Shown here in pieces: positions 24,346 to 61,997 of a stretch of 64,000 nucleotides of DNA (position 1 is the stretch's first letter; the number at the start of each line of letters is the position of its first letter). The translations under genes were made by a program, and so were the position numbers. Below the pieces are notes generated by a model. It made no database searches, had not been told where the DNA came from, and saw only the letters and a list, made by a program, of their open reading frames with translations. The DNA is from Anaerovorax odorimutans (GTDB lineage: Bacteria; Bacillota; Clostridia; Peptostreptococcales; JAAYPU01), in assembly GCA_016841185.1 (NCBI GenBank), contig JAENZQ010000003.1:25501-89500 (forward strand), given 5' to 3'.

Positions 24346-24365
24346 TTTATCTCCTCCATTCAATT

Positions 24366-24431: not shown

Positions 24432-24690
24432 AAAAAAAAGCTCTTCGTATCATAGAGACGAAAAGCTTCGTGTTACCACTCTTTTTTGCATAAATCTCAC
24501 GATTTATGCCTCATTAGGTTAATTGAACCATATAATACTAACGGATATTACCCGCCATATCCTAAATTCTTCGGATACAGAGCTCCAGGGCCATCTTCAA
24601 CATATTCAACGTATCGGCTTTCATCCGTTTACCGACTCTCTGTAACGTCTTTTATGCCTACTCTTCCCTTCATCGCCAGACTTTTTTATT
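24432..24690 (-). promoter_or_regulatory. T-box riboswitch leader (Met-specific) of metG
   Basis: The minus strand shows an AGAGAG bulge motif, then GAAtATG as a candidate specifier region (AUG). The T-box sequence AGAGTGGTAACACGAAGC lies at plus 24465-24482. A terminator (aagcttttcg ... cgaagagctt plus U8) lies at plus 24432-24468. Confidence 0.8.
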
Positions 24691-25136: not shown

Positions 25137-26390
25137 TTATGTGTTTTCTCTGGATTTTAAAGTTGCTTTAAAGACAGGCGCATTTCCTTTTTCATATTTT
25201 TCCAGTTCGGCTTTGAACAATGTGTTATCCGGATGCTGCTCAATGATGTCGAAGACTTCCATTACTTTCATGATATACTTTCTTAAATTAATTTTTTCCA
25301 TCTCAGGCTCGACTTCTTTATACATGTACAAAGCCCAATTGCTTATGGATTCAACTGAAATTTTCGGATTTATATCGTACACCTCTTTGTACAATTCTAA
25401 AATATTTTTTGTGATTTGAATAAAGTCTTCTTCCGACATGTCCGGTAAATATAAAATAGGCTGCCTTATATCCGACAAAGAAGCATTCTTCTTATCCACA
25501 GGATTGCCCAATCTCTGGAAAAGTGCCTGGTAGGAAGGAATGCCTTTTTCCGTATCCGACAGCAATTCATTGGTTGCTGCAAAAATGAACATTGTATTCT
25601 TTAATTCTCCAATGGAGCATTCATCAATGATGTACCGGATATTTTCAAAAGCTTTTGATCGTATGTCTATTCTTTCATTCATAATCAGTTCAACTTCGTC
25701 TACCAGTATTACAATCCCATCGTAACCTACATATTTGATTAGGTGAATGAATGCTTTCAAAAAATCCAAGGCATTGGTTTTGTCAATACTCCCGATAACG
25801 TCAAATTTTGCTTTCAAATGATAAGGAATGTTGCTCTCACATGATACCCATGAAGCAATGGTCGCCGCCAATTCCTTATCTTCATTTATTCTGGCACGAA
25901 TGTAAAATGTGATTGCTCTTGCAAAGGAGGCATTGTATTTTTCAAGATTGTATAAAATTTTTCTGATTTCAGATGAAGCCTGACCGTAAGACATGTCCTG
26001 TATTTTTGTGATCCATTTGTTAAAAATGTCTTCTATATTGGTAGCCGTTTCTCCTTTTCCAAGAATCGACAAGTTATGCATGATATTGTAATATAAATGC
26101 TGAAGATTATTCAGGCGGAAACCCTGATTTATTTTTATAGAAGATACTATGAAATTATTTCTTAATGCTTCAAGCTTTATTCTCTGCATCAAGAAGGTTT
26201 TTCCCGTTCCATAAGCTCCGGTTATCACTTTAACGGTTCCGCTTCCATTTTTTATTAACTGCATGTTTCTTGAAATCTCTTGTAATTGTTTCTCTCTTCC
26301 AACGCACAAATATTCTATTCCATACTGAGGCACGACTCCACTCTTCAATGCACTGACAATATGCTGCATAGACTGTTCCATTAGACTCAT
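25137..26390 (-). CDS. P-loop ATPase of the DUF2791 / BrxD-like family (orphan; no other BREX genes nearby)
   Basis: The N-terminus ALKSGVVPQYGIEYLCVGREKQL is typical of DUF2791. Walker A is GAYGTGKT and Walker B is IVILVDEVE. I prefer the start at the ATG 26388-26390, preceded by GGAGGAAAGC; the track start is a TTG at 26408. Confidence 0.55.
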   Translation of the reverse strand: MSLMEQSMQHIVSALKSGVVPQYGIEYLCVGREKQLQEISRNMQLIKNGSGTVKVITGAYGTGKTFLMQRIKLEALRNNFIVSSIKINQGFRLNNLQHLYYNIMHNLSILGKGETATNIEDIFNKWITKIQDMSYGQASSEIRKILYNLEKYNASFARAITFYIRARINEDKELAATIASWVSCESNIPYHLKAKFDVIGSIDKTNALDFLKAFIHLIKYVGYDGIVILVDEVELIMNERIDIRSKAFENIRYIIDECSIGELKNTMFIFAATNELLSDTEKGIPSYQALFQRLGNPVDKKNASLSDIRQPILYLPDMSEEDFIQITKNILELYKEVYDINPKISVESISNWALYMYKEVEPEMEKINLRKYIMKVMEVFDIIEQHPDNTLFKAELEKYEKGNAPVFKATLKSRENT

Positions 26391-26460
26391 GCTTTCCTCC
26401 AAATACAAAAAATCAATATTATTATATCATATTACTCAAAAGGTTAAAATAATCGTGACA

Positions 26461-32104: not shown

Positions 32105-32371
<267 letters not shown>

Positions 32372-32408: not shown

Positions 32409-33479
<1,071 letters not shown>

Positions 33480-33493
33480 TTATTATTAATTAT

Positions 33494-34192
33494 TTAATCC
33501 ATTGCCATGGAAACAAATACCATCGTCAGCATAACAAATATAAATGATTGAAGAACACCTGCAAAAATGTCGAAATACATATGGAATATAGATGGAATCG
33601 CTACCTCAAAAATAGGAACAGGTAGTCCCAGTTTTACACTTAAACCTGCAAGCGCACCATATAAGAGACTCATAATGATGAGTCCTCCCACAATATTCCC
33701 AAACAAACGAAAAGCCAAGGATATTGGCGTTGCCAATTCACTGATGATATTAAGAGGCAGCATAAAAGGAATCGGCTCTGTAAAGCCTTTTAAATATCCT
33801 AATATACCTTTTTTCCTCACTCCAAAGAAATGAATCATGAAGAATGTAATAATGGCTAAAGCAAATGTTGTATTTGTATCAGCCGTCGGAGCTCTGAATC
33901 CTGTTAATCCCCAGAGATTTGCAAAAACAAGATAAAAAAACAGTGTCCCAACATAAGGGGCAAAACCTAATTTATCTTTTCCCATCCCTTGTTCTGTAAG
34001 CTTGTAAATCATATCTACGATCATTTCTACGGCATTTTGGACTCCTTTGGGTTTCTTCTCAAAGTTTCTTACCAGAATAAGCGCTCCGATAATAAGAACA
34101 CCCATAATGATCCATGTGTTTACAACAGTTTCTGTAATAATAACGCCTCCCGGCAGTTCAAAAATTACTTTAGGTCCAAAATTTGTTTCCAT
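33494..34192 (-). CDS. atpB: Fo ATP synthase a subunit
   Basis: It has a-subunit TM helices with the conserved Arg in LAFRLFGNI. I prefer the start METNFGPK at the ATG 34190-34192, preceded by GGAAAGGAGGG. The track's 53-aa N-terminal extension to 34351 overlaps atpI and looks non-coding. Confidence 0.9.
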   Translation of the reverse strand: METNFGPKVIFELPGGVIITETVVNTWIIMGVLIIGALILVRNFEKKPKGVQNAVEMIVDMIYKLTEQGMGKDKLGFAPYVGTLFFYLVFANLWGLTGFRAPTADTNTTFALAIITFFMIHFFGVRKKGILGYLKGFTEPIPFMLPLNIISELATPISLAFRLFGNIVGGLIIMSLLYGALAGLSVKLGLPVPIFEVAIPSIFHMYFDIFAGVLQSFIFVMLTMVFVSMAMD

Positions 34193-34310
34193 TTTAACCC
34201 TCCTTTCCAGCTTACATTTATTATCGTTAAGGTTATTACCATAACATACAAAATTAAAATTATAGAAGTCCGTATACTTAAAATTATATAGCTTTAATCT
34301 TAAATATATA

Positions 34311-34709
34311 TTATTTTTTTCTAAAAATTTTTTTATAATACGTTTTGTCATTAAAAGCGTATCTTATTAGTATAACTACTTTAATTAGCAATAATCCAAT
34401 AATCGTTCCTATGACATTTATGTAATCCGCCTTTATGGAAATATACAAAACAACCCCATAAATGGTATATCTTATAAAGTATCTGGATGTTGCATAAGCT
34501 TTTGCTTTTTCCGGAGCCATCCGGGCTGCCCGCTCAATAGTATTGGCCAGCAAAGTAAAATTTAAAGTTGCAATAAGTGTGCCAAAAATCAATCCGTATA
34601 TTAACGGAACATAATCCTCTATAAAAAATACCAAAAACCCTGCTGCCACACATGCCAATATAATTGTATATTTATACACATTTATTTTCAAATCAGTAGT
34701 TTCACTCAT
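34311..34709 (-). CDS. atpI: ATP synthase protein I
   Basis: 132 aa small hydrophobic protein directly upstream of atpB. Confidence 0.75.
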   Translation of the reverse strand: MSETTDLKINVYKYTIILACVAAGFLVFFIEDYVPLIYGLIFGTLIATLNFTLLANTIERAARMAPEKAKAYATSRYFIRYTIYGVVLYISIKADYINVIGTIIGLLLIKVVILIRYAFNDKTYYKKIFRKK

Positions 34710-46384: not shown

Positions 46385-47452
46385 ATGTTTGATAAACTTG
46401 ATTTTATACAGGAAAAATATGATACATTGAGTATGAAAGTATCCGATCCGGAAATCATTGCAAATCAAAGCATCTGGCAAAAATATGTCAAGGAACTATC
46501 CGATATTGAAGATATCGTCCTTAAATATAAAGAATACCGGAAATTAAAAAATGAAATTGACGAAACAAAGCTATTATTGGAGGACAGTAATGATTCAGAA
46601 CTCAGGGAAATGGCTAAATCCGAACTTAATGACTTGGAAGAAAAGATTTCCCATGTTCAGGAAGAACTTAAAATGCTCCTTATCCCCAAAGATCCTAATG
46701 ATGATAAGAATGTCATTATAGAAATACGTGCGGGAGCAGGAGGAGATGAGGCAGGCCTTTTCGGAAGCGATCTTTTGAGAATGTATATGCGATATGCCGA
46801 AAGACGAAGGTGGAAAACAGAAATGCTTGAGATGAATGAAACCGGTGTAGGCGGCATCAAAGAAGCCATTGTCCTGATAAAAGGAAAAGGCGCCTATTCC
46901 AGACTTAAATACGAAAGCGGCGTGCATAGGGTCCAAAGGATACCAACAACGGAATCCGGCGGCAGGATTCACACCTCAACAGCAACAGTAGCCGTACTGC
47001 CGGAAGTAGATGATGTTGAAATCGACATCAACCCCAATGAAGTAAGGGTCGATGTTTATCGGTCATCGGGAAATGGCGGCCAGAGTGTTAATACCACAGA
47101 TTCAGCCGTACGATTAACGCACATACCAACAGGAATTGTCGTCACCTGTCAGGATGAAAAATCTCAATTAAAAAACAAAGAACGAGCTTTTAAGGTTCTG
47201 AGAGCCAGGCTTTATGATATCAAACTGCAGGAACAGAATAAGGAAATTGCGGCTGAAAGAAAAAATCAGGTGGGCACAGGAGATCGGAGTGAAAGAATCC
47301 GAACCTATAATTTCCCACAGGGAAGAGTGTCCGACCATCGAATTAATCTGACCATTTACAAGTTGGATTACTTCCTTGATGGGGATATCGACGAAATAGT
47401 AGATGCGCTCATCACATCCTCTCAGACAGAAAAATTACAGGAAGCACAATAA
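46385..47452 (+). CDS. prfA: Peptide chain release factor 1
   Basis: 355 aa with the GGQ motif [16 protein letters not shown]. The RF1 tripeptide region is read as PTTES, which is tentative. Confidence 0.95.
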
Positions 47453-47460
47453 TATAAGCT

Positions 47461-47588
47461 CGGGTGTCAGGGCAAGAGGAATTAGAAAAAAATAAGAGAT
47501 AGATAACAGATAATAATGAAGGAAAGAAATTATGACAAGTCATAATTTCTAACCATAACCTTTATCTCTTATTTGTTATCTTTTATCT
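47461..47588. repeat. Composite intergenic element, copy 11, between prfA and the giant gene
   Basis: The left arm is aataagagatagataacagataataatgaagga. A hairpin at 47525-47550 (agaaattatgac / gtcataatttct) follows. The right arm is aaccataacctttatctcttatttgttatcttttatc, and the arms are imperfectly complementary. Confidence 0.8.
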
Positions 47589-47620
47589 AAACCAGTAATG
47601 TTAATAAGTTTGAGGTGGAT

Positions 47621-50600
47621 ATGGTGAATAGAGATGTCTTAATCGGTATACAGAAAAAATTGATCAACACTTTCAGGGATAAAGCTTTTTTAGAAAGAAT
47701 TCTCCTAAAAGAAGAAGATTTGCTTCCGTTTATTGAAAGTACTGCATTTATTGTAGAACTTTCAATTTTATATGAAAAAGAAAAGCGTACCTGCCAGGAT
47801 ATTTTAAACCTATGCAAGCTTGTTTTTATAAAAGTTTTTGAGAATGAACCCAAACAAGGCTGGCTGAATTGCGCTTATCAGTACACTTTAAAAAAATCCT
47901 TTCCCCATCTTAATATTACGACTGAGAAGCAATACGAAGCACCTGTCATTGTTTTTCTGCAATTCTTAAAAACATTTCTGGAAGCCGACAGAACAAGTCA
48001 GAAAGAAGATCCGGAAAAATCTTTTTTGATATTGGATCTGTTATCCAAGGAAGAAATAAAAAAGCTGTATAATCCAATGGAATATCGAAGCTTTTTGAAA
48101 GCTTTTAATAACCTTTATATTTGTGAAATGATGCGTTTGCATCAGGAAATTACAAATCATAATATTTTTGACCATATTTGTGCCGTACACTTTGTTGCAG
48201 TTAATATTGGACGGCAGCTGAACAAAGCCGGCATACCTGTCGACCTTGGCCGGGTTTCCGGTGCTGCAGCGGGGCATGATATCGGAAAATTTGCATGTAC
48301 CGGCGAAGAAATTAAACGGATTCCTTATTTACATTATTACTATACGGATTTATGGTTCAAAAATAACAATATTCCGCATATCGGCCATGTTGCCATTAAT
48401 CATTCTACTTGGGATTTGGAACTGGAAAACCTTCCTTTGGAATCATTGATTCTGATTTATGCTGATTTTCGAGCAAAAAACGAACACAGCAAAGGTCAGA
48501 AGAACATGAAAATTTATTCCCTTGCACAGGCTTTTGACATTATTTTAGAAAAATTGGATGATGTCAATGAAGCAAAAGCAAACCGTTATAAAAAAGTATA
48601 TAATAAGCTCTATGACTTCGAAAGCTATCTGAAGTACCTTGGAATCAATGTGGATATGCTGTCTGAAGAAAAACTCACGCCCTCATATAAAAACTGCACT
48701 TTGATGAACGGCAAAGAAATTGTTGAAAATTTAAAATACAAAGCGATCGAACACAATATCTATCTGATGTTTAAGCTAAGAAGTGAAACAGCGCTGACTT
48801 CCATGATAGAAGTAGCTAAAAGCAGAAACAGTTCCAATATTTTAAGAAGCAATTTAAATATCCTGAGTGAATATTCCACATACTTTACTCAGAAGCAAAA
48901 ACTCATTACTCTAAATTATCTGTTTGATCTTCTGGTTCACCATGAAGAAGATATAAGAAAAAAAGCATCCGAACTTATAGGTATTATTATTGGTATTTTT
49001 GATGAGGAATATAGAAAAGAAGTCCCTGAAAATTCATCCTTAGAGGTGCCTGTAGTCACCAGTCTGCAGCTCTTTGAAAAATATATCGAAGCAATGGTTC
49101 ATCCGGACCATAAAATCATGGATACCCATAAAGAAAGACTTGGATACGGTCTTAGGACTTATATTGAATCCTTTTTTAAAAAGTGCAAAAAATCTTTAAT
49201 TCCTGATTACAGGAATATTATGGTTCAATATTTGATTAATACGCCGAAAGAAGATCCGGATACTCAAATCAATCTTCTGCAGGCAGTTAAATTCATTCCC
49301 TGGGAAGGTTCTAATCTTAGAACTGTTAATATTCTTGCAGATATTCTCTTAGATGCATTAAAGAATGAAAACAGTGATATACGCCTGATTTCTATGGACA
49401 GGATTAATCTGCTTTTAGACATTTTTCCCTATAGTTCTTTTAAAGCTAAGATTACTGAGGCTTTAAATACTTTTTATCGTTCCTCACCCAACCTGACTGA
49501 AAAATATATAAGGTGCAGGATATTACGAAAGCTGGACTTATGTGAGAAAGAAGAAGACTGGTTTCAGGAATGCTTTATCAACAGAAATGAACGGTTATCC
49601 GATATATATTTAAGAAATCTGAAAAGCGGAACAAGCTGGATCTCCAAAAAATATCATATTGAATTGATGCTGGACCATTCAAATTATGCATCCCAAAGTG
49701 ATGCATTATACACAGCCATGCATTTTTGCAACCTTATAAAAGTCAGTTCCAAGGAAAACGTAAGAATCAATGCCGGTAAGGCACTTTTAAAAATTATCGA
49801 GCATCTTTCTTTAGAACAGCGGAATGACATTTCTGTTGAATTACTCAGAGCTTTGGAAATCGAAAGTTTTGAGCACGGGGCTTATATTCCCGAATATCTC
49901 GGTCAGGTGTTTTTATACTTAGGTCCGGGTGAATTGGATGAGCAGATTACCGAATTATATACAAAGATGAAACGTATGAGCAATCAGACCGTATTTCTTG
50001 TTTTACATACCATTGAAATTGCCATCGAGCATTATTTCGGATATCAGAAAAAAACGGATGAACCGGATGAAAACTTTTTATTCAGGTTGGAACGCATGCT
50101 TGGAATTTTATTGATTGGCTGTTCCAATTATGACGATGAAATCAAACAGGAAGCCTTTACCGTTATCGGAAATATTTTTGCATCCGATAAGCTAAGCCTT
50201 GAAGAGAAACAAACCATTTTTAATATTATAGCCAAAAAAACCCTGGTACTCCTGACAGAAAAAGAAGTAAACGAATTCCTGTTTATTAATAACGCTGCTT
50301 CCTTAAACCATATTTACCGTTTTGTTTCAGATTATTCCCACAAGTACGGAAATATTTATGTGTCCGTACCGGAAAAAATCGCTTTTTTCCCGGGTACTTT
50401 TGACCCCTTTTCATTAAGCCATAAAAAAATAGCTGTAGAAATAAGAAATCTGGGATATGAGGTTTATTTAGCGGTAGACGAATTCTCTTGGTCCAAATCA
50501 ACTCAACCACATCTAAAAAGACAAAAAGTTATCAGTATGTCTATTGCTGATGAACGAAATATATTTTTGTTTCCTGAAGAGATTCCTGTAAACATCGCCA

Positions 50601-52507
50601 ACCCCTCCGACATGAAAAAGCTTAAAAGCACTTTTGATTATAAAGAAGTTTACGTTGCAGTAGGAAACGATGTGGTTGTTAATGCTTCTGCCTACAAAAA
50701 AAAGCCTTGTGAAGATTCTATCCATCATTTTCCTCATATCATCTTTAAAAGAGAGTACGGAGAGCATGAAAAATACAATCAGAGTGAGTATAGAAAAGCC
50801 CTGCAGCAATTGACAGGAGATATTATAGAGCTGCAGCTGGGTAAACAATTTGATATGATTCGTTCTTCGCTAATCCGGCAGTGCATCGACGAGAACCGCG
50901 ACATCAGCAACCTTATTGATCCTTTGTCTCAGCAATATATATATGAATATGGCCTTTATTTAAAAGAACCTCAATATAAAATTCTGGTTGAAAATCATTC
51001 CATATCTTTAAAACATTTTAAAAAAGCTAATAAACAGCTGATCGAATCACTTACGGACAAGTTGTTTTTTGGAAATAAAAATCAGCAACATACCATCAAT
51101 CAATTGATCAAAAGTAAAAATGCAGAATTAATCGTGTTATATGATACAAGTTACGGGCTCAATATTTCAGGGTGTGCTATATTCCACAGAGTCAACTCCA
51201 GTACCCTTTACAGTGAATTTAAAAATAATTATGTTTCTGAACATATAAGGCATCATTCCATAGGCAGAATGATCGTAATCGACGGTATCTTTACTCACAA
51301 TGATGCTCCGGACAATTCCGAGCAGATGATTCTGAGTGAAACACTCTCTTATTGTTTGTCAGAAGACTATACTTATGCAATTTTTAAACCTGCATTTGTA
51401 ACTGAAAATCTGAACAAGGTTTGTTCCGTTTTTAAGCTGCAGGGTTTTGAAGAAATATTACAAGACGCCTCTATCCCCGTTCTGGATGTGGATATGTCAA
51501 AGCCTTGCATTCTGAATCTTGATTTGCTTACATTTATAAAAGAACCTTTCAGAAGCAATGAGAAGATCATTCATGCCGTTAAAAAATCAAGAGCAAAGCT
51601 TCAAAAAGCACTTGCGGATCTGTTCCCGGGAAATCTTGTTATTTCCTTTGAGAGAGAAGCTTTATATCAAACTCTTATAGAAAAAGTCTGCTCCACCAAT
51701 AACGTACCCATGAAATCCGTATCGCCGCAACATCTGGGACCATATATGTGTGTCCCCTTCGGTCAGATTTTAAAAGGCCATATGGTGCCAAATACGGTGA
51801 CGAAATCTCTTCATACGGAAAAAATATATAATTCCAAGGTGTCAGATTTTTATATCGGTCCGTATCCCCAATATCTGAATCTGGAAACACAAATAAAAAC
51901 CATTCACTCTTTTAATCGGCCGGTTATTTTACTGGATGATATTTTAAATAAGGGATATCGTATTAAAGCTTTGAATCCTCTTCTTAAACAAGAAAATATC
52001 GAAGTGAAAAAAATTATTGTCGGTATACTATCTTCCAGAGGAAAAGAGCTCATGGATATTCAGGGACGGGAAATAGATTCTGCTTATTATATACCAAATC
52101 TCAAGAACTGGTTTACGGAAGCCACCATGTATCCCTTTATAGGAGGAGATTCCGTTTCAAGAGGCTCTGCACCTGTAAAATATCTTATTCCGTCTATTAA
52201 CCTGATTTTCCCATATGCTTCTCCGTCCTTTATACGAGGAGCTTCCCTGGAATCTTTGTTCCGGTTATCACAAGTATGCATCGAAAATACAATGAATATA
52301 TTTAAAGTATTAGAAAAGGAATATCAGTTTACACAAGAAAAAAGCCTTACATTAGGCCATCTGGGTGAGGTTATTGTTTTTCCAAGATATCCGGATAAAG
52401 GAGATGGCATCCTATATGACTATAACCAGAAAGCATCTTCCTATCTGGCAGATGACCTGGAACATTTATTCCGGCTTCAGCCTTTATCCTCAAATTTGTT
52501 GAAGTAA
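47621..52507 (+). CDS. Giant multidomain protein: N-terminal region, HDIG phosphohydrolase, long helical-repeat (HEAT-like) region, NadD/cytidylyltransferase-like domain, possible GNAT-like region, PRTase-like C-terminal domain
   Basis: Continuous ORF of 1628 aa from the ATG at 47621, which follows a GAGGTGG RBS.
- HD motif: HICAVH...AAGHDIGK...IYADFRA, about aa 185-300
- NTase motifs: FFPGTFDPFSLSH and MIRSSLIR, about aa 925-1110 (compare NadD GTFDPxHxGH and ISSTxIR)
- PRPP-loop-like motif: RPVILLDDILNKGYR, about aa 1470. Confidence 0.8.
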   Translation: MVNRDVLIGIQKKLINTFRDKAFLERILLKEEDLLPFIESTAFIVELSILYEKEKRTCQDILNLCKLVFIKVFENEPKQGWLNCAYQYTLKKSFPHLNITTEKQYEAPVIVFLQFLKTFLEADRTSQKEDPEKSFLILDLLSKEEIKKLYNPMEYRSFLKAFNNLYICEMMRLHQEITNHNIFDHICAVHFVAVNIGRQLNKAGIPVDLGRVSGAAAGHDIGKFACTGEEIKRIPYLHYYYTDLWFKNNNIPHIGHVAINHSTWDLELENLPLESLILIYADFRAKNEHSKGQKNMKIYSLAQAFDIILEKLDDVNEAKANRYKKVYNKLYDFESYLKYLGINVDMLSEEKLTPSYKNCTLMNGKEIVENLKYKAIEHNIYLMFKLRSETALTSMIEVAKSRNSSNILRSNLNILSEYSTYFTQKQKLITLNYLFDLLVHHEEDIRKKASELIGIIIGIFDEEYRKEVPENSSLEVPVVTSLQLFEKYIEAMVHPDHKIMDTHKERLGYGLRTYIESFFKKCKKSLIPDYRNIMVQYLINTPKEDPDTQINLLQAVKFIPWEGSNLRTVNILADILLDALKNENSDIRLISMDRINLLLDIFPYSSFKAKITEALNTFYRSSPNLTEKYIRCRILRKLDLCEKEEDWFQECFINRNERLSDIYLRNLKSGTSWISKKYHIELMLDHSNYASQSDALYTAMHFCNLIKVSSKENVRINAGKALLKIIEHLSLEQRNDISVELLRALEIESFEHGAYIPEYLGQVFLYLGPGELDEQITELYTKMKRMSNQTVFLVLHTIEIAIEHYFGYQKKTDEPDENFLFRLERMLGILLIGCSNYDDEIKQEAFTVIGNIFASDKLSLEEKQTIFNIIAKKTLVLLTEKEVNEFLFINNAASLNHIYRFVSDYSHKYGNIYVSVPEKIAFFPGTFDPFSLSHKKIAVEIRNLGYEVYLAVDEFSWSKSTQPHLKRQKVISMSIADERNIFLFPEEIPVNIANPSDMKKLKSTFDYKEVYVAVGNDVVVNASAYKKKPCEDSIHHFPHIIFKREYGEHEKYNQSEYRKALQQLTGDIIELQLGKQFDMIRSSLIRQCIDENRDISNLIDPLSQQYIYEYGLYLKEPQYKILVENHSISLKHFKKANKQLIESLTDKLFFGNKNQQHTINQLIKSKNAELIVLYDTSYGLNISGCAIFHRVNSSTLYSEFKNNYVSEHIRHHSIGRMIVIDGIFTHNDAPDNSEQMILSETLSYCLSEDYTYAIFKPAFVTENLNKVCSVFKLQGFEEILQDASIPVLDVDMSKPCILNLDLLTFIKEPFRSNEKIIHAVKKSRAKLQKALADLFPGNLVISFEREALYQTLIEKVCSTNNVPMKSVSPQHLGPYMCVPFGQILKGHMVPNTVTKSLHTEKIYNSKVSDFYIGPYPQYLNLETQIKTIHSFNRPVILLDDILNKGYRIKALNPLLKQENIEVKKIIVGILSSRGKELMDIQGREIDSAYYIPNLKNWFTEATMYPFIGGDSVSRGSAPVKYLIPSINLIFPYASPSFIRGASLESLFRLSQVCIENTMNIFKVLEKEYQFTQEKSLTLGHLGEVIVFPRYPDKGDGILYDYNQKASSYLADDLEHLFRLQPLSSNLLK

Positions 52508-52544
52508 TTTGATCTCAAGATATACAAACATGAAAGGAAATGCA

Positions 52545-53783
52545 ATGTTTTACTACTATAAATATAAAGATAAGGTTTTGTTTTCCCTCAAAGAATATCG
52601 CGGTTTTGTGAGCATCAATGAAGAAATGGCAAAAGAGCATGGCGATACTATGTATTTCCTTGGAAAACTGCCACCGATGAAATCCCGTATGTCTTTTACC
52701 CTGTCAGATTCCGATATGTTTTACCTTGAAAAAGAATCCTTGGATTTACTAAATTCCCCTGATGTAAAGAAGCCTGTCATGTCTTGGCTTTCAGAAAGAA
52801 TAAATAACCGTCAGATAGTCTATATTAATACGGAATATGAACATTGGAAATGCGCATTGGAAAAAGCACCGCCAAAAAAATGGAAGATTCACATTATTGC
52901 TTTGGGAGATATCGGAAGTACCCTATTAACAGGTTTAAGAGTACTTGGAAGTGAGCACATCGACGAAATAGGTATTTATGACAGGAAAATGAACAATGTA
53001 AAAAGATGGGAATTTGAAATGAATCAGACAATGCCTCCTTTTAAGTATCAATTCCTGCCGGAGGTGAAACTGATTAACGAAAACCGGCTCATGACCTGTG
53101 ATATCCTGATATTCTGCGCTGCAAAGGGATATGTTTTGGATAATACGATTTCTGATGTACGAATGGCACAATTTCAGCAGAATTCCAACATTATCTCAAC
53201 CTATGCAAAGAAAGCACGTTCCGCCGGATTTAAAGGAATTTTTGCCATTTTATCCGACCCTGTTGATTTATTATGTAAAAAAGTGCTTCTGGAAAGTAAT
53301 TATACCTCCGATGGTTGCCTTGACTGCAAAGGATTGGCTCCCGAGCAAATCCGGGGTTTTGGTTTGGGTGTCATGAATTCAAGAGCAGTCTATTATGCAA
53401 AAAAATTTACAAAATTCCGGCACTATATAGAAGAAGGCAGAGCCTTTGGCCCTCACGGTTCAGGACTGGTCATTGCCGATAGTATAGAGCATTATAACGA
53501 TGATTTGTCCATTGAGCTTACCGACCTTGCTGTAAAAGCAAACCTTAAAATGCGTGAATTGGGATTTAAGCCTTATGTGGCGCCGGCCTTATCCTCCGGC
53601 ACCTATTCTATATTAGCCATGATCTCCGGACAATGGCATTATTCTTCTACTTTCTTAGGCGGTGTCTACATGGGTTCCAATAATCGTCTTGTTAACGGGT
53701 ATACGGAATTAGAGCGATTAATGCTGCCTGATAAGCTCATGAAGCGCCTAAGGACTTCTTATGACGGATTAAGCATTTTATAA
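52545..53783 (+). CDS. Lactate/malate dehydrogenase-family Rossmann protein with a ~110-120 aa N-terminal extension
   Basis: KIHIIALGDIGSTL...IGIYDRK (dinucleotide fold), CDILIFCAAKG, ILSDPVDLL and FGPHGSG align with the LDH motifs GAGxVG...D, ADxVVxTAG, TNPVD and GEHGDS. The start is ambiguous: ATG at 52545 with an AGGA RBS, ATG at 52530, or TTG at 52509. Confidence 0.65.
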   Translation: MFYYYKYKDKVLFSLKEYRGFVSINEEMAKEHGDTMYFLGKLPPMKSRMSFTLSDSDMFYLEKESLDLLNSPDVKKPVMSWLSERINNRQIVYINTEYEHWKCALEKAPPKKWKIHIIALGDIGSTLLTGLRVLGSEHIDEIGIYDRKMNNVKRWEFEMNQTMPPFKYQFLPEVKLINENRLMTCDILIFCAAKGYVLDNTISDVRMAQFQQNSNIISTYAKKARSAGFKGIFAILSDPVDLLCKKVLLESNYTSDGCLDCKGLAPEQIRGFGLGVMNSRAVYYAKKFTKFRHYIEEGRAFGPHGSGLVIADSIEHYNDDLSIELTDLAVKANLKMRELGFKPYVAPALSSGTYSILAMISGQWHYSSTFLGGVYMGSNNRLVNGYTELERLMLPDKLMKRLRTSYDGLSIL

Positions 53784-53877
53784 GTTTTCTTGTAAATGTA
53801 TATACAAAAATAGACTTGCTGCCTTATAAATGAAAAGGTGCTGATTTCAACAGGCAGGATTTAAAAGGGTGGTGCAA

Positions 53878-54930
53878 ATGTCTGAATCATTATATGTAAT
53901 ATCAGGAGGAAAACCTTCTTCGTTGCTTAAAGAAATGACAGTTTCGGTTTCCAAGTATTTTGAAGAGGTTGTTGAAGCCGGTCGTGAGTCACTTCCTGAT
54001 TTGAGCAATAAAAAAATCCTTTTTTCCGTTCAATTGAATCAGGCAGGCTTCTGCCCGGAGATGGATGCTGTTTTATTTTCATTATGGGACAAGGGGCATA
54101 AATCTCTTGCAGGATCATCAGCTATCGTACTGATCCATTGTGATTCTGAACTCTTTACTAAAACATACTGTCAAAATCTTATATATCATGCCAATATGAT
54201 GGGCTGCTCTTTTATGGGCCGCCCCTTTGTAGAAGCAGCAGGAAATTTGTATAACCTGGCAGTAGCTCAAAAAACAATAAAAAAACCTTTAATGGATGTC
54301 TGCTTTGCTTTATGCGAAAACTTAGCCAAAAGATTTAAAAGCTACTCTCCCCGGCTTATTGAAAATCCAAGGATTTGTGTACTCCATTCAAGCAATTTCG
54401 AGACTTCTAATACCTTGATGCTTTGGAATATGGTTGCTGAGTATTTAATGCCTTGTATTCCTAAGGTGCTGCACATTGAAAACGGCACGGTAAAAGATTG
54501 TATCGGATGTTCCTATATAACATGCAAGCATTACGGGGAGAGTCAATCCTGTTTTTATGGCGGTGTCATGGTTGAAGAAGTATATCCTTCGATTCTCGAA
54601 GCCGATGCCCTTATTTTTTTATGCCCCAATTATAACGATGCCTTGTCAGCTAATATTTCTGCTGTCATCAATCGGTTAACCGCTTTGTTCCGGAAAACTA
54701 AATTTTACAACAAATCGGTTTTTGGTATAATAGTATCAGGCAATTCAGGCTCGGATGCCTTAGGAAAACAGCTTATCAGCGCTTTGAACATGAATAAAAC
54801 CTTCCGGCTACCGCCTTATTTTTCTTTGTGTGCCAATGCAAACGATCCCGGTGCAATACTCAAAGTACCCGGAATAGAAGAATGCGCAAAGGCTTTCGCC
54901 GAAAATATAAAGAAAGAAATCAAAAAATAA
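53878..54930 (+). CDS. Flavodoxin-fold NADPH-dependent FMN reductase / iron-sulfur-flavoprotein-like protein with a ~165 aa N-terminal domain of unknown function
   Basis: The C-terminal half reads RICVLHSSNFETSNT...CIGCSYITCKHYGESQSCFYGG...ILEADALIFLCPNYNDALSANISAVINRL. This matches the ISF/FMN_red pattern (GSxRxxxNT...CxGCxxC...C...ADxxIxxSPxY). The start is the ATG at 53878 after GGGTGG. Confidence 0.65.
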   Translation: MSESLYVISGGKPSSLLKEMTVSVSKYFEEVVEAGRESLPDLSNKKILFSVQLNQAGFCPEMDAVLFSLWDKGHKSLAGSSAIVLIHCDSELFTKTYCQNLIYHANMMGCSFMGRPFVEAAGNLYNLAVAQKTIKKPLMDVCFALCENLAKRFKSYSPRLIENPRICVLHSSNFETSNTLMLWNMVAEYLMPCIPKVLHIENGTVKDCIGCSYITCKHYGESQSCFYGGVMVEEVYPSILEADALIFLCPNYNDALSANISAVINRLTALFRKTKFYNKSVFGIIVSGNSGSDALGKQLISALNMNKTFRLPPYFSLCANANDPGAILKVPGIEECAKAFAENIKKEIKK

Positions 54931-54994
54931 AAATAGAAAATCGATATAAAAATGTGTGTATTGATTATTATATTATTATACCGGTTCATATTCA

Positions 54995-55003
54995 TGCTAT
55001 AAT
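54995..55003 (+). promoter_or_regulatory. Candidate extended -10 promoter (TGcTATAAT) for DUF1385-prmC
   Basis: TGCTATAAT lies at 54995-55003, 52 nt before the ATG. There is no convincing -35 element. Confidence 0.3.
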
Positions 55004-55054
55004 TGATAAAACCCAAGCGATTCGGGCACGGAGACCCAACCCTACAAAATTTAA

Positions 55055-56023
55055 ATGGAGGATATCAATTTGGACTTTGATAAAATATTCAGAAAGGATG
55101 CAAATCCTACGAAAATAGGAGGACAGGCCGTAATAGAAGGCGTTATGATGAAAGGCTCCTCCTGTATGGCGACATCCGTAAGAAAACCGAATGGAGAAAT
55201 AACCCTTAAAGTGGATAAAATAAAACCATTGGGAAAAATTGCAAAACTACCTGTCATCAGAGGTATCTATGCCTTTGGAAGCGCTTTAGTCACCGGAACC
55301 AAGACATTGATGTATTCTGCGGAAGTTCTGGAGGAAGCCGGCGTATATATGGAAAAAAGTAAATTTGATCTGTGGATTGAAAAAAAATTAGGGGATCATG
55401 CTACCACCTTTTTATTATATTTTTCCGTAGTGATCGCATTGATTTTCACCATTGGAATATTTGTCATTCTCCCTACCATTGCCGTTAATTTTTTTTCGCG
55501 CTTTACCGAAAATACGATTCTTCTTAATCTTTATGAAGGAGTTTTGAGGATTGTTATGTTCGTCGTCTATGTTGCTGTGATTTCCAGACTGGAAGATATC
55601 CGGCGAGTTTTCCAATATCATGGCGCCGAACATAAATCCATTCACTGCTATGAAAGCGGTCTGGATCTCACTGTGGAAAACTGCAAACCTTTTCCGGTAC
55701 TTCATCCCAGATGCGGAACCAGCTTTATGATGTTTGTTCTGGTCATTAGTCTGCTGCTTTTTTCTCTTTTAGGATGGCCGAATCTTTTGGTACGGATCAC
55801 ATCACGGCTTTTATTCATCCCCCTGATCGCCGGTTTATCCTATGAATTACTGCGGTGGGCAGGAAAGAGCAGTTCTTCTCTGGTAAAGATCATCAGTTTA
55901 CCGGGTCTGTGGCTTCAAATGCTTACCACGAAGGAACCGGATGCTTCTCAGATCGAAACGGCATTGTCCTCGCTTAAAGCCGTTTTAGATTATTCGGAAG
56001 GCAATGAAGATCTATGGAATTAA
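55055..56023 (+). CDS. DUF1385 (YqhQ-like) membrane protein
   Basis: 322 aa. IGGQAVIEGVMMKG and HGAEHK are DUF1385 hallmarks. This gene is the conserved partner upstream of prmC in Clostridia. Confidence 0.85.
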   Translation: MEDINLDFDKIFRKDANPTKIGGQAVIEGVMMKGSSCMATSVRKPNGEITLKVDKIKPLGKIAKLPVIRGIYAFGSALVTGTKTLMYSAEVLEEAGVYMEKSKFDLWIEKKLGDHATTFLLYFSVVIALIFTIGIFVILPTIAVNFFSRFTENTILLNLYEGVLRIVMFVVYVAVISRLEDIRRVFQYHGAEHKSIHCYESGLDLTVENCKPFPVLHPRCGTSFMMFVLVISLLLFSLLGWPNLLVRITSRLLFIPLIAGLSYELLRWAGKSSSSLVKIISLPGLWLQMLTTKEPDASQIETALSSLKAVLDYSEGNEDLWN

Positions 56024-56877
56024 AAATCAAATCGGTCTTGAAATATGCCGCTTCTCTGCTTAGAGAAAGCGGCTGTTTGTCTCCTCAGCTTGATGCAGAA
56101 CTCCTTTTGGCCTTTCTTCTGCATAAGGAAAGAAGCTATCTGTTTATGTACCCTGAAAAAGAAATACCTCTTTCAGTCTATCATCATTATCTTGCTCTAA
56201 TAGAAAAACGAAAAAAAGGAAAGCCTGTTGCGTATATAACAGGAAATCAGGAATTTATGAAGCTTGATTTTTTTGTAAATGAAAGTGTGCTGATTCCCAG
56301 GCCGGATACTGAAATACTGATTGAAAAGATAATAGAAACCGTGAAAGGAAACCCCCAAAGTATTCGTATTTTAGATCTTGGATGCGGAAGCGGTGCCATA
56401 TCGGTAAGCTTGGCCTGTTATCTACCTGATGCTTTTGTTTGTAGTACGGATATAAGCCCTGAGGCCATACGAATTGCACAGATAAACGCCTCAAATCATA
56501 ATGTCAATAATCAAGTTACCTTTTTATGCGGAGATTTATTCGCTCCCGTAAAGAACAAATTCGATATCATTGTATCCAACCCCCCTTATATCCCAACCAA
56601 GGACATTGACACACTACAGGCCGAAGTCTCAAATCATGAACCTCGAAAAGCATTGGACGGCGGTGAGGATGGCCTTGAATTTTACAGACGGATTATTTCT
56701 GAAGCGCCTGAATATATAAAAAACACCGGCTACCTCTTCCTTGAAATCGGATATGACCAGGCCCGGGATATCTCGTCTTTGCTTGCTGAAAGGAAAAAAT
56801 ATTCAAATATTGAGATTTTTAAAGATTTAGCGGGAAGAAACAGGGTTGTAAAGGCAGAGATTAAATCTAAAGTGTAG
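56014..56877 (+). CDS. prmC: Release factor glutamine N5-methyltransferase
   Basis: 287 aa with SAM motif LDLGCGSGAI and catalytic NPPY (VSNPPYI). It overlaps DUF1385 by 10 nt. Confidence 0.9.
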   Translation: MELKIKSVLKYAASLLRESGCLSPQLDAELLLAFLLHKERSYLFMYPEKEIPLSVYHHYLALIEKRKKGKPVAYITGNQEFMKLDFFVNESVLIPRPDTEILIEKIIETVKGNPQSIRILDLGCGSGAISVSLACYLPDAFVCSTDISPEAIRIAQINASNHNVNNQVTFLCGDLFAPVKNKFDIIVSNPPYIPTKDIDTLQAEVSNHEPRKALDGGEDGLEFYRRIISEAPEYIKNTGYLFLEIGYDQARDISSLLAERKKYSNIEIFKDLAGRNRVVKAEIKSKV

Positions 56878-56878
56878 G

Positions 56879-57115
56879 CTTATGATTTAAGGTTTAAGAT
56901 TTATGATTGGAGATTGGTGGTAGAAATTTTGATGATCATCAAAATTTCTGCCCATAATTATTCATTGTTCCATTATTAATTGTAAACAAGTGTCGGAGGT
57001 AAGAGTATTTAAGATTTAAGTTGAGCTTTGTCCCAAAGCCTTCAACTTGTCATCGCGAGGAGCGATAGCGACGCACCTTTTTGACCCAAGCTTGTCTTGG
57101 CAAGGCAAAACAGTA
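56879..57115. repeat. Composite intergenic element, copy 12, between prmC and rpmE (convergent)
   Basis: Module order:
- cttatgatttaaggtttaagatttatgattggagattggtgg
- a perfect 28-nt palindrome at 56922-56949 (agaaattttgatga|tcatcaaaatttct)
- gtcatcgcgaggagcgatagcgac
- cttgtcttggcaaggc. Confidence 0.8.
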
Positions 57116-57121
57116 AAGGTA

Positions 57122-57150
57122 AAAAATCGGAGAGTAACTCTCCGATTTTT
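57122..57150. terminator. Bidirectional Rho-independent terminator shared by rpmE and prmC
   Basis: aaaaatcggagag taa ctctccgattttt forms a 13-bp stem. T-runs follow on both strands (tttttggttttttt on plus, ttttt on minus). It lies 8 nt after the rpmE stop. Confidence 0.8.
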
Positions 57151-59297: not shown

Positions 59298-60413
59298 TTA
59301 ATCCTGAATCTGCATTTCAATAATTTTGATACCATCACAAGTATACTCAACTTCCATATTCAAAGTCAAGTAAATCATGCTTTTTTTATTGTTGTTTTCA
59401 TCATATATCTCTGAATTGTCATCCAATATATATGAAACCTCGTCTCCCCTTCTTCTTTCAATGGTGATTTTGTAAATATTATCTGTTATCTGACGCATTT
59501 CGGAGATTGTCCCGTCATATACATCTTCTTCTGTCCAAATAAGTAACTGTTCATCATCCACCTCATTGTTATAAGCAATCATTGCTTTCGTACCGTCTTT
59601 GAGCTCCCTGATAGAGCTGTCTTTTCCATTGATGATTATTCCCGCTTCTTCAGAAATTATAAGTGTGTACTGAATCCCTGAGGTATCTTCAAAGAAAAGA
59701 GTATTGCCTCTGACTTCTTTAATAGTCCCATTGAAGGTGTTCCCTTCTTTTTCTATATCCGGTTCCCGGCTGTTCCCAAGATAATACAATCTTGAACATA
59801 CTGCAGCAAACTCAGCACGGGTGATGGTATTATACGGCCGGAATTCATTATGATCATCCCCGATCATAATCTGATGCCGGTACATAAGATCGATATAGGG
59901 AGTTGCTTCTTCATCGATAGCTTCCCTGTCGTTATAAGGCAGAGCATATAAGGGGGATATTTCTTTATCCACAGCCTTTGCAGCCCAAACCGCAACTTCC
60001 TGTCTGTTTGCAGGAGTCCCTATCTCATTGCTGACAAACCCGATCAGGTCTTCTTCCTCGATAATATCATATTCCAAAGCATAAGCCACGTAAGGGCGGG
60101 CCCATTGGGCTATGCCGTAAGCATTCATAGGCTCAATATATGCATCCGTAAAGTTATCACTGTTTTCTAAAACTCCTGCCGCATTTAGAGACCTGTAGAT
60201 CATGGCCAGGGACTGCTCTTTTGTAACCGGACTGGAAGGTAGAAAAGTTCCGTCCGGGAAACCATTTATAATGCCCTTATCTGCCGTAAATTCTATATAG
60301 CTATATGCCCAGTGCCCAGCTGTGTCTGTGAATTTGACACCGGCATAGGATAAGGTTGATAGTGCCAGAAAAGCTATGATTATAAACACTAATACTTTAT
60401 TGCTTTTTCTCAT
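59298..60413 (-). CDS. Secreted protein with three N-terminal SLH (S-layer homology) domains
   Basis: 371 aa with a signal peptide (VLVFIIIAFLALSTLSYA). SLH motifs are FTDTAGHWAYSYIEFTADKGIINGFPDGTFLP..., a second region, and a third ending RPYNTITRAEFAAV. Confidence 0.8.
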   Translation of the reverse strand: MRKSNKVLVFIIIAFLALSTLSYAGVKFTDTAGHWAYSYIEFTADKGIINGFPDGTFLPSSPVTKEQSLAMIYRSLNAAGVLENSDNFTDAYIEPMNAYGIAQWARPYVAYALEYDIIEEEDLIGFVSNEIGTPANRQEVAVWAAKAVDKEISPLYALPYNDREAIDEEATPYIDLMYRHQIMIGDDHNEFRPYNTITRAEFAAVCSRLYYLGNSREPDIEKEGNTFNGTIKEVRGNTLFFEDTSGIQYTLIISEEAGIIINGKDSSIRELKDGTKAMIAYNNEVDDEQLLIWTEEDVYDGTISEMRQITDNIYKITIERRRGDEVSYILDDNSEIYDENNNKKSMIYLTLNMEVEYTCDGIKIIEMQIQD

Positions 60414-60773: not shown

Positions 60774-61997
60774 CTATGACAATGGTACGGTAAAACGTCC
60801 AGCGCCCATGGATTCTTCAAATGCATCGACTGCAAGGTTATAATCGAGGATCGCATTGGAAAGACCCACTTTTGCCTGAAATACTTTTGTCTGAATTTCC
60901 TGTACATCCGTGAGAATTGCCATACCGGAATCATAAGTCAGCTGTGTCAGCCTCAAGGCTTCCTCCAGTGATTCTACAGACTTTTTACTTGTTTCAACAG
61001 CTGATTTCTTTTGCATCATATCCATATACTTTCCCCTGACATCTATCTCTACATCATCTAATGCTACGACATATTTTTCTGTTGATTCTTCCAAAGCAAC
61101 TCTTTGCTTCTTTACTTCAGAAGCCGAAGTTGATTTTTTCTTTAAACTTTCCATAGTCATTTCGGAAAGATCCAGCTGAAATTTCGCAGCATAGATTTCG
61201 TTTCTTTCTAAAAGTGCTTTTGATACGGCATCTGCTATACCGATGTCCTTTTCTTCCGCATTTTCTGAAATAGTATCTGTTAAAACAACCTCCTGCATTG
61301 GATCATATCCTAACAGTAAATTAAACTTCATTTTTACGTTTTTCAAATTAACAACAGATTCTTCATAATCGGTTTGAGCGCTCATAAGCTCATATTCTGC
61401 AGACAGGACATCCTGCTTTGCAACCATGCCCAACTCAAATTTTGTCTGTGTATCATCATAAAGCTTTTGTCTCACCTCAACATTTTCTTTATTGACTGTA
61501 ACCAATTCATTTAAGTTGTTGACTGTAAAATAAAGCTCCTTTACTTGTGCGTTCAGCATGTTTTCCTCAGCCGTTTTATTTCTGAGTCTTTGATCCTTAT
61601 AAAACTCTCCTGTAAATTTCAATATCTCCGCATCGGAACGGGTAGAACTAATACTGCTTTGTATTAATTCAGCATTAGCATAAGCTTCCGCTTTCTTCTT
61701 TTCATTAGGATATGTGCCTCTAAATAATGTATTTGCAGTATCCCATCCCGCGTTAATAGCTTTAGCATTTTCCGTATACTCCCAATAGGCAGCTACTGCT
61801 TTTTCCTCATTCCAGTCAATGCTCTTTCCCGAAACGCTTTCGTTACGTGCCCTGTCGATAGCCTCTTCCAGCGAAAGGGTTATTGCATCCCCTTGAAAGT
61901 CCATGCTATCTATAACATTGATATCGGCTGATGTGAATACAGCAAAGGAAAGGATCAAACCAAATACTAAAATTCCTGATACAATTTTTTTATTCAT
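60774..61997 (-). CDS. TolC/OEP-family (outer-membrane efflux protein-like) protein with signal peptide
   Basis: 407 aa. After the signal peptide comes LSLEEAIDRARNES, and the protein ends ...LTQLTYDSGMAILTDVQEIQTKVFQAKVGLSNAILDYNLAVDAFEESMG. This is the two-repeat coiled-coil pattern of OEP proteins as I recall it. Confidence 0.6.
   Translation of the reverse strand: MNKKIVSGILVFGLILSFAVFTSADINVIDSMDFQGDAITLSLEEAIDRARNESVSGKSIDWNEEKAVAAYWEYTENAKAINAGWDTANTLFRGTYPNEKKKAEAYANAELIQSSISSTRSDAEILKFTGEFYKDQRLRNKTAEENMLNAQVKELYFTVNNLNELVTVNKENVEVRQKLYDDTQTKFELGMVAKQDVLSAEYELMSAQTDYEESVVNLKNVKMKFNLLLGYDPMQEVVLTDTISENAEEKDIGIADAVSKALLERNEIYAAKFQLDLSEMTMESLKKKSTSASEVKKQRVALEESTEKYVVALDDVEIDVRGKYMDMMQKKSAVETSKKSVESLEEALRLTQLTYDSGMAILTDVQEIQTKVFQAKVGLSNAILDYNLAVDAFEESMGAGRFTVPLS

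Follow-up and report, generated by a model that had tools for sequence, protein, structure and literature searches.

A widely conserved clostridial gene triad combining a five-domain giant protein with two redox-type partners

A window of 64,000 nucleotides, taken as a whole from a genome assembly of Anaerovorax odorimutans (GCA_016841185.1, contig JAENZQ010000003.1, positions 25,501 to 89,500 of the forward strand), contains three adjacent genes between prfA and the DUF1385-prmC pair. They encode a giant protein of 1,628 amino acids, a dehydrogenase-like protein of the lactate dehydrogenase/malate dehydrogenase (LDH/MDH) superfamily and a flavoprotein with an FMN_red domain. The three genes form a conserved unit, an operon that is widely retained across Clostridia. 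All coordinates given below are those of the window.

Organization of the locus

The triad occupies the interval 47453-55054 and consists of three co-directional open reading frames (ORFs) on the + strand, with prfA on the left and DUF1385-prmC on the right. The giant gene (47621-52507, stop included) starts with an ATG, has the ribosome-binding site GAGGTGG upstream and matches the 1,628-residue protein P0001 at 100%. It is followed by the gene of the LDH-like protein (52545-53783; 412 amino acids, ATG start, ribosome-binding site AAAGGAAA) and by that of the flavoprotein (53878-54930; 350 amino acids, ATG start). All three are the likely starts, set by exact matches to NCBI-called proteins. 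The giant stop at 52507 and the LDH-like start at 52545 are separated by 37 nucleotides, and the LDH-like stop and the flavoprotein start at 53878 by 94; each gap contains a Shine-Dalgarno sequence. The three + strand flanking genes, prfA (46385-47452; PCRF and RF-1 domains), the DUF1385 gene (55055-56023) and prmC (56014-56877), lie outside the conserved unit.

The 124-nucleotide gap between the flavoprotein gene and DUF1385 holds an extended -10-like sequence, TGcTATAAT, at 54993-55001. No terminator-like match was found in the intergenic gaps of the module, all such matches being intragenic and few enough to be due to chance; strong terminator-like hairpins first appear 3′ of prmC, at 56919-56952 and 57122-57150. 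Upstream of the giant gene, a search for riboswitches or leaders at Rfam gathering thresholds, in the window and six related loci, and a permissive scan of 47300-47800 returned only hairpin-type noise. This layout agrees with the original prediction in the presence, place and direction of the three genes, in the 94-nucleotide gap and in the promoter-like sequence placed at 54995 ahead of DUF1385. The predicted starts needed revision: the giant begins at the ATG at 47621 rather than at the GTG that opens the frame at 47615, and the LDH-like start is now placed at 52545.

The G+C content of the module (0.33-0.40) is the same as that of its flanks, and integrases, transposases and tRNAs were looked for at its junctions and not found; a mobile island was dismissed on these grounds. 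A known anti-phage defence system was dismissed as well, on the negative result of PADLOC, which found no defence-system match for the three proteins beyond a single weak one to ShosT (E 1.2e-3) at the phosphoribosyltransferase loop of the giant.

An imperfect AT-rich inverted repeat with TTATCT/AGATAA repeats (47487-47589, no strand assigned) follows the stop of prfA and precedes the giant gene. It includes a perfect palindrome with arms of 11 bp, GAAATTATGAC-AA-GTCATAATTTC, at 47526-47549, for which 0 matches are expected by chance. Folded as RNA, 47487-47589 gives -36 kcal/mol (z = -2.9). The TTATCT repeats recur upstream of the giant gene, at ~110 nucleotides, in a single close relative, L002, and are absent from other lineages; relative to L002 the perfect palindrome is an addition of the window copy. 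The inverted repeat is lineage-specific and may be a prfA terminator or attenuator, or an operator. A composite repeat had been described here (47461-47588): the repeat is real, its nature and limits are those just given, and it shows no sign of an insertion scar or a mobile element.

Nearly all + strand genes of the window fall in the prfA-giant-LDH-like-FMN_red-DUF1385-prmC block (46385-56877), with one further + strand ORF at 13731-14417 in the non-overlapping ORF set. At this locus prfA precedes DUF1385-prmC. The usual clostridial order is DUF1385-prmC-prfA, which suggests a local rearrangement around these genes in the lineage of the window.

Conservation of the triad and its genomic context

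The neighbourhood comparison that had been proposed beforehand was made on 95 related loci, which were obtained by scanning metagenomes, from two genome loci and by looking up single proteins, and the counts of triads were limited to loci with at least 2.6 kb of DNA downstream of the giant gene. In 62 of the first 64 qualifying loci, the LDH-like and FMN_red genes follow directly 3′ of the giant, in that order and on one strand, and their two ORFs abut or overlap in half of these (31 of 62). When divergent members were added, the full triad was found in one order in 66 of 72 loci. These loci span 30-89% identity, and the triad is still complete at ~30% (L089, L090 and L094). Conservation on this scale excludes chance adjacency, and the expectation that the triad is conserved as a unit is borne out. 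The six exceptions comprise two solo giants with intact motifs, two giants accompanied by the LDH-like gene only and two solo giants with degenerate motifs. Crassaminicella thermophila has a full triad together with a second, solo giant with intact motifs (L006).

The position next to prfA and prmC, which had been thought a possible constant, is lineage-specific. It is shared with L002 alone, a clostridial metagenome-assembled genome at 82% identity; elsewhere the flanks are unrelated, and a constant tie to prfA/prmC is ruled out. Clustering of 853 neighbouring ORFs revealed no constant neighbour beyond the triad, only lineage-specific sets such as rlmN, ndk or carD-yacL-DUF421-DUF4363. In the most divergent complete triads the genes of a flavodiiron protein (Lactamase_B and ODP domains) and a rubredoxin stand directly 3′ on the same strand (L089, 8203-9598; L090, 9664-11059), and a divergent gene for an IclR-type regulator lies upstream. 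In two genomes a small alarmone synthetase gene and hpt occur near the triad. The solo giants of L088 and L093 sit in a carD-yacL(PIN)-DUF421-DUF4363-giant-DUF378 context, preceded in L093 by a radA-like gene, and the same upstream genes also flank full triads in some fermentation-metagenome loci.

In many lineages a sigma-A-type extended -10 promoter-like sequence is present 30-50 nucleotides upstream of the giant gene, which points to predicted vegetative, housekeeping expression. The spacing within the triad varies in one metagenomic clade (L019, L020, L022-L025, L027, L028, L030, L033, L034, L042, L045 and L068), where 190-450 nucleotides separate the giant from the LDH-like gene. These spacers are filled by short GC-rich palindromes resembling repetitive extragenic palindromic (REP) elements, e.g. 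GGGGCGTATTGCATACGCCC and CCTCTCCCCTGGAGGGAGAGG, in copy numbers that differ between loci. A conserved element in the spacers was considered and dismissed, as they hold only these REP-like palindromes and share no ORF.

The giant protein

Giants of this type are widely distributed among Clostridia that are anaerobic and, for the most part, form spores, and the family counts more than 4,000 homologues with a length of ~1,620-1,650 amino acids. Comparison of the N-terminal half with 1.84 billion cluster representatives (50%-identity clusters) gave 511 relatives, of which 187 reached E<=1e-30. Those listed are mostly 1,540-1,740 amino acids long, with identities down to 27%, and the shorter ones are probably fragments. 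From this retention of length across divergent relatives, the architecture is old and stable, and the giant of the window is a typical representative of its large family, which is present in the databases but uncharacterised. In the window protein Pfam recognizes CTP_transf_like only, no curated Pfam or NCBIfam model covers the giant beyond its NadD-like domain, and literature searches returned no description of the function of the family or of the triad. The claim that the gene system is undescribed therefore stands with respect to these models, PADLOC and the literature searched.

The structure was predicted with AlphaFold2 as two halves (residues 1-910 and 880-1628) from 61-sequence alignments. 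The N-terminal half is all-helical, with a mean predicted local distance difference test (pLDDT) of 88 and a predicted template modelling score of 0.86; the C-terminal half (pLDDT 82.8) has Foldseek matches to three folds, NadD/NMNAT, GNAT and phosphoribosyltransferase (PRT). Structure prediction and motifs together give five domains, namely an HDIG-type HD domain, a HEAT/ARM solenoid, a NadD-like, a GNAT-like and a type-I PRT domain. They are framed by an N-terminal helical region (residues 1-170; 47621-48130, +; all-helical at pLDDT ~80-95 in model m626a133156fa, no Pfam match) and a C-terminal one (residues 1543-1628; 52247-52504, +; helices at residues 664-748 of model m01ace2f9b58a). The composition that had been proposed, nucleotide-handling domains on a HEAT-like scaffold accompanied by a Rossmann dehydrogenase and an FMN/Fe-S-type protein, is upheld, as are the individual assignments of a CTP_transf_like/NadD-like domain in the giant, a weak Ldh_1_N domain from residue 114 of the second protein and an FMN_red domain from residue 164 of the third.

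The HD domain (residues ~175-345; 48143-48655, +) is recognized mainly by its ligands H185, H219-D220, H238, H261 and D282, a set that is invariant among 25 and among 61 homologues and kept in 27 of 31 divergent members. Profile matches are weak (Pfam HD in 10 of 25 members, best E 0.006; NCBIfam HDIG, TIGR00295 and DVU_1551), as is the match to a solved structure (1xx7, E 0.037), the fold search being dominated by HEAT matches. The six-ligand pattern H..HD..H..H..D marks binuclear HD enzymes such as YqeK (PMC8177086). The HEAT/ARM alpha-solenoid extends over ~550 residues (~365-910; 48713-50350, +). It is supported by the AlphaFold2 model, by Foldseek matches to CAND1, Kap121p, SF3B1 and PP2A-A (E 7e-6 to 2e-4) and by Pfam HEAT, found in 21 of 25 family members.

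The NadD/NMNAT-like nucleotidyltransferase domain (residues 918-1120; 50372-50980, +) carries the motifs PGTFDPFSLSH and IRSSLIR in the window protein. It matches Pfam CTP_transf_like at 27 bits and NadD/NMNAT structures at a Foldseek E of 1e-6 (target template modelling score 0.62-0.75), and hidden Markov model (HMM) alignments pair it with NadD end to end. In the first loop, PGTFDPF-S-L-(S/G)-H, 26 of 31 members have the last His, which is missing from those with degenerate motifs; the uncharacterised protein VPA0413 of the Protein Data Bank (PDB; 3h05) shares the SxGH form. The ISSTxxR motif near the C-terminus of the domain is present, with the family consensus EDISSTQIR. Tyr1025, which is invariant, corresponds in the alignment to the Tyr of a WY pair in Enterococcus faecium NadD; this pair stacks on the pyridine ring.

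The GNAT-like domain (residues ~1128-1300; 51002-51520, +) was assigned by Foldseek at E 5e-5 to 1.5e-4, with matches to FeeM (2g0b, 5e-5), GCN5 (5trm, 1e-4) and the HAT-like domain of OGA (6r45). No Pfam acetyltransferase model matches the giant members, and inspection of the consensus from the ‘IDGIF’ strand to the ‘NLEQI.LTETL’ helix revealed no acyl-coenzyme A pyrophosphate loop (Q/R-x-x-G-x-G/A). The type-I PRT-like domain (residues ~1376-1540; 51746-52240, +) contains a phosphoribosyl pyrophosphate (PRPP) loop, VILLDDILNKGYR, and a further conserved loop, VPNTVTKSLHTEK. The PRPP loop is near-canonical, VILVDDLLNKGYR, the family form being VIL(V/L)DD(L/I)L(N/H)KGYR. Pfam Pribosyltran is found in 12 of 25 members (best E 7.7e-6), NCBIfam APRT, HGPRT and PyrR models match weakly, and Foldseek retrieves the UPRT 2e55 at E 1.7e-4 with a template modelling score of only 0.42. 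In most of the family the PRPP loop, the two motifs of the NadD-like domain and all six ligands of the HD domain are strictly retained.

The two redox-type partners

The body of the LDH-like protein (residues 113-412) follows an N-terminal extension (residues 1-112; 52545-52880, +). Ldh_1_N is detected from residue 114 in all 28 members examined (best E 5.6e-9), the window copy scoring 22.4 bits, under the 27-bit cut-off. The NAD domain matches LDHs of the PDB with a profile E of 3.5e-7 and has in the family a GxGxxG motif of the form GLGDVG and an acidic residue after strand 2, in IGIYD. HMM-HMM alignment (hhalign) to an LDH sequence of Bacillus stearothermophilus, entered by hand, gave a probability of 96% across both domains, and on that alignment Arg109, Arg171 and His195 of LDH correspond to R206, R280 and H304, which are invariant or near-invariant. 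The protein scores far below the equivalog cut-offs for L-LDH/MDH (TIGR01771, 27 versus 303 bits; NF004863, 20 versus 283 bits).

In the flavoprotein, the FMN_red domain (residues 164-317) scores 63.1 bits against a Pfam cut-off of 24 and is found in all 25 members, with a phosphate-binding loop HSSN..TSNT; the match to solved FMN reductases is marginal (E 0.09). A four-cysteine motif inside this domain, C208-x2-C211-x4-C216-x8-C225 (54499-54552, +), is invariant in 25 homologues and is a putative [4Fe-4S] site. The N-terminal domain (residues 1-160) has no Pfam match and contains the conserved cysteines C110, C142 and C146.

An extra N-terminal domain had been claimed for both proteins. Both are present in the window (~112 and ~160 amino acids), but that of the LDH-like protein is not universal, since several lineages that keep the triad have LDH-like partners of 303-331 amino acids without it. 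Docking through these extensions, as once suggested, cannot therefore be essential. The ~112-residue extension has no detectable relatives and no Pfam match, and hhalign found no homology of the two extensions with each other or with the giant.

Natural variants

The motif table of 31 divergent giants, read together with their neighbourhoods, reveals a pattern based on small numbers. Giants with intact NadD and PRT motifs, whether the HD motif is intact or lost, are found with the full triad (the window protein, P0440 and P0477). Those with a degenerate PRT loop and intact HD and NadD motifs, P0458 and P0468 (loci L091 and L092), are followed by the LDH-like gene only, with no adjacent FMN_red gene. 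Those in which HD and NadD are degenerate and the PRT loop is intact, P0487 and P0488 (L088 and L093), have neither partner adjacent. HD ligands are lost in P0435 and P0477. A loss of partners in step with domain degeneration is suggestive, as a lead from small numbers.

Other features of the window

The window also includes an ATP synthase operon in which a 350-residue ORF (32409-33461, -) encodes four fused c-subunit hairpins, each with a Pfam ATP-synt_C match. The ion-binding Glu (AETSG) is present in the first hairpin only and is replaced by Gln in the other three. A normal 88-residue c subunit with Glu adjoins this ORF, the two adjoining ORFs lying at 32105-32371 (-) and 33494-34351 (-), and sequence and position indicate a probable a-subunit gene beside the c-subunit genes. 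This arrangement suggests that the ATP synthase may have a hybrid c-ring with few ion sites. It resembles the c1 subunit of Acetobacterium woodii; the version of the window has four hairpins.

Between the metG leader and the atp operon lies a gene for a BrxD/SngB-like ATPase (25137-26408, -; Pfam BrxC_BrxD 2e-86, PADLOC BrxD 2.6e-63). The leader is a T-box (24451-24682, -; 119 bits) upstream of the methionyl-tRNA synthetase gene (22402-24363). An SLH-domain protein (59298-60413, -), a TolC-like outer-membrane efflux protein of the OEP family (60774-61997, -) and SpoIIE (11076-13493, -) occur in the same window, a combination suggestive of a Clostridia-like spore former with an envelope of the diderm type.

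Functional interpretation

In Gram-positive bacteria NadD occurs fused to, or clustered with, the HD hydrolase YqeK, which hydrolyses diadenosine tetraphosphate (Ap4A) and mis-made analogues of nicotinic acid adenine dinucleotide (PMC9426524). This pair is the closest characterised system and provides the basis for the model favoured here, which is held tentatively and falls short of probable: the operon would encode a complex, assembled on a scaffold and coupled to two redox partners, for the synthesis, editing or turnover of a dinucleotide of the pyridine type, resembling nicotinamide adenine dinucleotide (NAD). The conserved gene order, the folds and the retained catalytic-type motifs are observed; from them we infer substrates, reaction directions, a physical complex and a physiological role as follows. 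The PRT domain would join a heterocyclic base to PRPP to give a mononucleotide, which the NadD-like domain would adenylylate with ATP to a dinucleotide. The binuclear HDIG domain would cleave pyrophosphate bonds in incorrect or excess products, as YqeK does beside NadD, while the ~550-residue solenoid would hold the modules and recruit the partners. The LDH-like protein would bind NAD(P)(H) and a carboxylate-bearing substrate, and the FMN/[4Fe-4S] flavoprotein would pass electrons, so that the two redox partners would link the redox state of the cell to the way in which the dinucleotide is synthesised, repaired or turned over. Such a scheme would extend the known NadD-YqeK pairing.

Several observations weigh against this dinucleotide model. 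The NadD-like domain lies below the NadD equivalog cut-offs (TIGR00482, 34 versus 112 bits; NF000840, 27 versus 150 bits), and it is NadD-like rather than a NadD orthologue. The first position of its (H/T)xGH-type motif, which is His in NadD and Thr in PPAT (TxGH), is Ser or Thr and never His among members, and Ser in the window; the window copy departs further from the family with DMIRSSLIR in place of EDISSTQIR, Ser and Arg being kept. Eight loci that retain the triad have Asn or Thr at the second acidic position of the PRT loop. The PRT of the giant is type I, whereas the pyridine PRTs that are known (PncB, NadC and NadV) belong to type II, and the GNAT-like domain has no role in the scheme. 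The LDH-like protein of the window has ALGDIG in place of GLGDVG and deviates in this from its family; LDH Asp168 corresponds to an invariant Met277, so that the classical LDH catalytic set is incomplete and classical LDH chemistry is uncertain on this sequence. Finally, gene context provides no link to NAD genes or a NAD regulon, and the Rfam search of the window and six related loci found no riboswitch.

Other explanations account for parts of the same evidence. The main idea of the original prediction, a biosynthetic line for a new nucleotide-linked redox metabolite or cofactor, appears unlikely. The LDH-like protein and the flavoprotein would make or tailor a carboxylate moiety, the PRT and NadD-like domains would attach ribose-phosphate and AMP, the HD domain would trim phosphate and the GNAT-like domain would add or hold an acyl or amino-acid group. 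Five enzyme-type domains and two redox enzymes are indeed kept together, the LDH-like protein retains the equivalents of the carboxylate-binding Arg171 and of His195, the GNAT-like fold is closest to the N-acyl amino acid synthase FeeM, as would fit a tailoring step, and all domains score well under housekeeping equivalog cut-offs, as would fit a new substrate. However, the triad has no constant companion among genes for transport, regulation or additional biosynthetic steps, the GNAT-like domain is without a CoA-binding loop, lineages persist with one or two degenerate domains, which is odd for a linear pathway, and to our knowledge no such metabolite has been reported from Clostridia. Such persistence (P0435 and P0477 with HD ligands lost, P0487 and P0488 with HD and NadD motifs lost) implies that catalysis by those domains is dispensable in some lineages and speaks for the second idea put forward earlier, a regulatory or sensing scaffold whose domains would sense PRPP, ATP, NAD(H), Ap4A or alarmones and whose solenoid would relay their state to partners, including the redox proteins. 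Long HEAT solenoids are typical of protein-protein scaffolds, PRT-like and GNAT-like domains are often effector-binding modules (PurR, PyrR and the pseudo-HAT of OGA), the OGA HAT-like domain is among the Foldseek matches of the GNAT-like domain, and two genomes have the small alarmone synthetase gene and hpt in the vicinity. We nevertheless consider this scaffold quite unlikely: that neighbourhood is not general, Pfam and NCBIfam searches found no DNA-binding, RNA-binding or signalling output domain, and the strict retention of catalytic-type residues in most of the family argues for chemistry beyond binding.

An emphasis on the two smaller proteins leads to an electron-transfer or oxidative-stress unit, in which the LDH-like protein and the flavoprotein, akin to the iron-sulfur flavoproteins (Isf), would form a reductase driven by NAD(P)H or a 2-hydroxyacid that feeds rubredoxin and a flavodiiron protein, while the giant supplies or regulates a nucleotide cofactor. 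The flavodiiron and rubredoxin genes directly after the triad in L089 and L090, the FMN_red fold with its four invariant cysteines, and the implication of iron-sulfur flavoproteins in the reduction of O2 and H2O2 in anaerobes are in its favour. This link is confined to one lineage, on two contigs with the same gene order; moreover, FMN_red is the least constant member, being absent beside the giant in L091 and L092, and the most conserved partner, a 1,628-residue nucleotide enzyme, is left unexplained, which makes such a unit very unlikely. A further alternative, unrelated neighbours or a recent foreign island between prfA and prmC, is effectively refuted. The unusual, lineage-specific position and the inverted repeat at the left junction would agree with it, but the same order recurs in very different contexts in the 66 of 72 loci, across the whole range of 30-89% identity, the flank-like G+C and the junctions free of integrase, transposase and tRNA genes indicate no insertion, and PADLOC gave no defence-system match beyond the weak hit to the PRT domain.

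Beyond the dinucleotide model itself, a wider proposal, which we regard as doubtful, is that the triad forms an enzyme complex that has gone unrecognised, occurs throughout Clostridia and is built on a HEAT scaffold of eukaryotic style. It would either build a new dinucleotide-type cofactor or act in the quality control of pyridine nucleotides, which would comprise salvage, renewed adenylylation, editing by hydrolysis and a flavin-dependent step that re-oxidises damaged forms. If true, this would make the triad a metabolic machine of a new kind and not a variant of NadD-YqeK. The giant merits attention on several counts. It has thousands of length-conserved homologues, yet no curated family model or paper was found for it, and it unites the NadD-like and HD activities, whose linkage in Gram-positive genomes was unexplained until its recent interpretation as NAD ‘proofreading’. 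It extends these by a PRT of the base-salvage type and a HEAT scaffold, together with two redox enzymes. Solving the triad could uncover a new branch of nucleotide-cofactor metabolism or of damage control in strict anaerobes, and the giant could provide a bacterial model for HEAT-scaffolded enzyme complexes. The natural variants, with single domains inactivated and partner genes lost in step, point to structure-function tests.

Comparison with known systems

Among known proteins, the flavoprotein resembles the iron-sulfur flavoproteins and NAD(P)H-dependent FMN reductases (such as Isf of methanogens) in its flavodoxin-like FMN_red domain and its compact four-cysteine motif. The spacing of its cysteines, Cx2Cx4Cx8C, differs from the Isf motif, Cx2Cx2Cx4-7C, and it has an additional N-terminal domain of ~160 residues with three more conserved cysteines. 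The LDH-like protein shares with the LDH/MDH superfamily (L-lactate, malate and 2-hydroxyisocaproate dehydrogenases) the Rossmann NAD domain, a fold aligned by hhalign over its whole extent and the equivalents of Arg109, Arg171 and His195. It differs in the extra N-terminal domain of ~112 residues found in most members and in a C-terminal half that is not seen by Pfam Ldh_1_C; relative to LDH itself, Asp168 is replaced by the invariant Met and Asn140 by Asp, and Thr246 is lost.

The giant can be compared with two systems. Citrate lyase ligase, CitC, consists of a GNAT-like domain fused to an HxGH-type nucleotidyltransferase, and the giant likewise joins a GNAT-like fold to a domain of the cytidylyltransferase superfamily in one chain. 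The order is opposite, however, the nucleotidyltransferase of the giant is NadD-like over its full length, including ISSTxxR, and the Citrate_ly_lig profile matches neither the window giant nor the family members searched. With the NadD-YqeK pair or fusion, the giant has in common a NadD-fold nucleotidyltransferase and a six-ligand HD domain in one polypeptide or operon. NCBIfam PRK07152, which we take to be the model of the NadD-YqeK fusion, matches 3 of 25 giant family members. The differences are substantial. The order of the domains is reversed, HD coming first, with ~550 residues of HEAT solenoid in between; the GNAT-like and PRT domains are extra, as are the two dedicated redox partners. 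The NadD-like domain lies far under the NadD cut-offs and has SxxH for HxGH, and no HD model matches the HD domain more than weakly. The component folds are all known, and the triad is read as an expanded nucleotide system of the NadD/HD type with redox partners.

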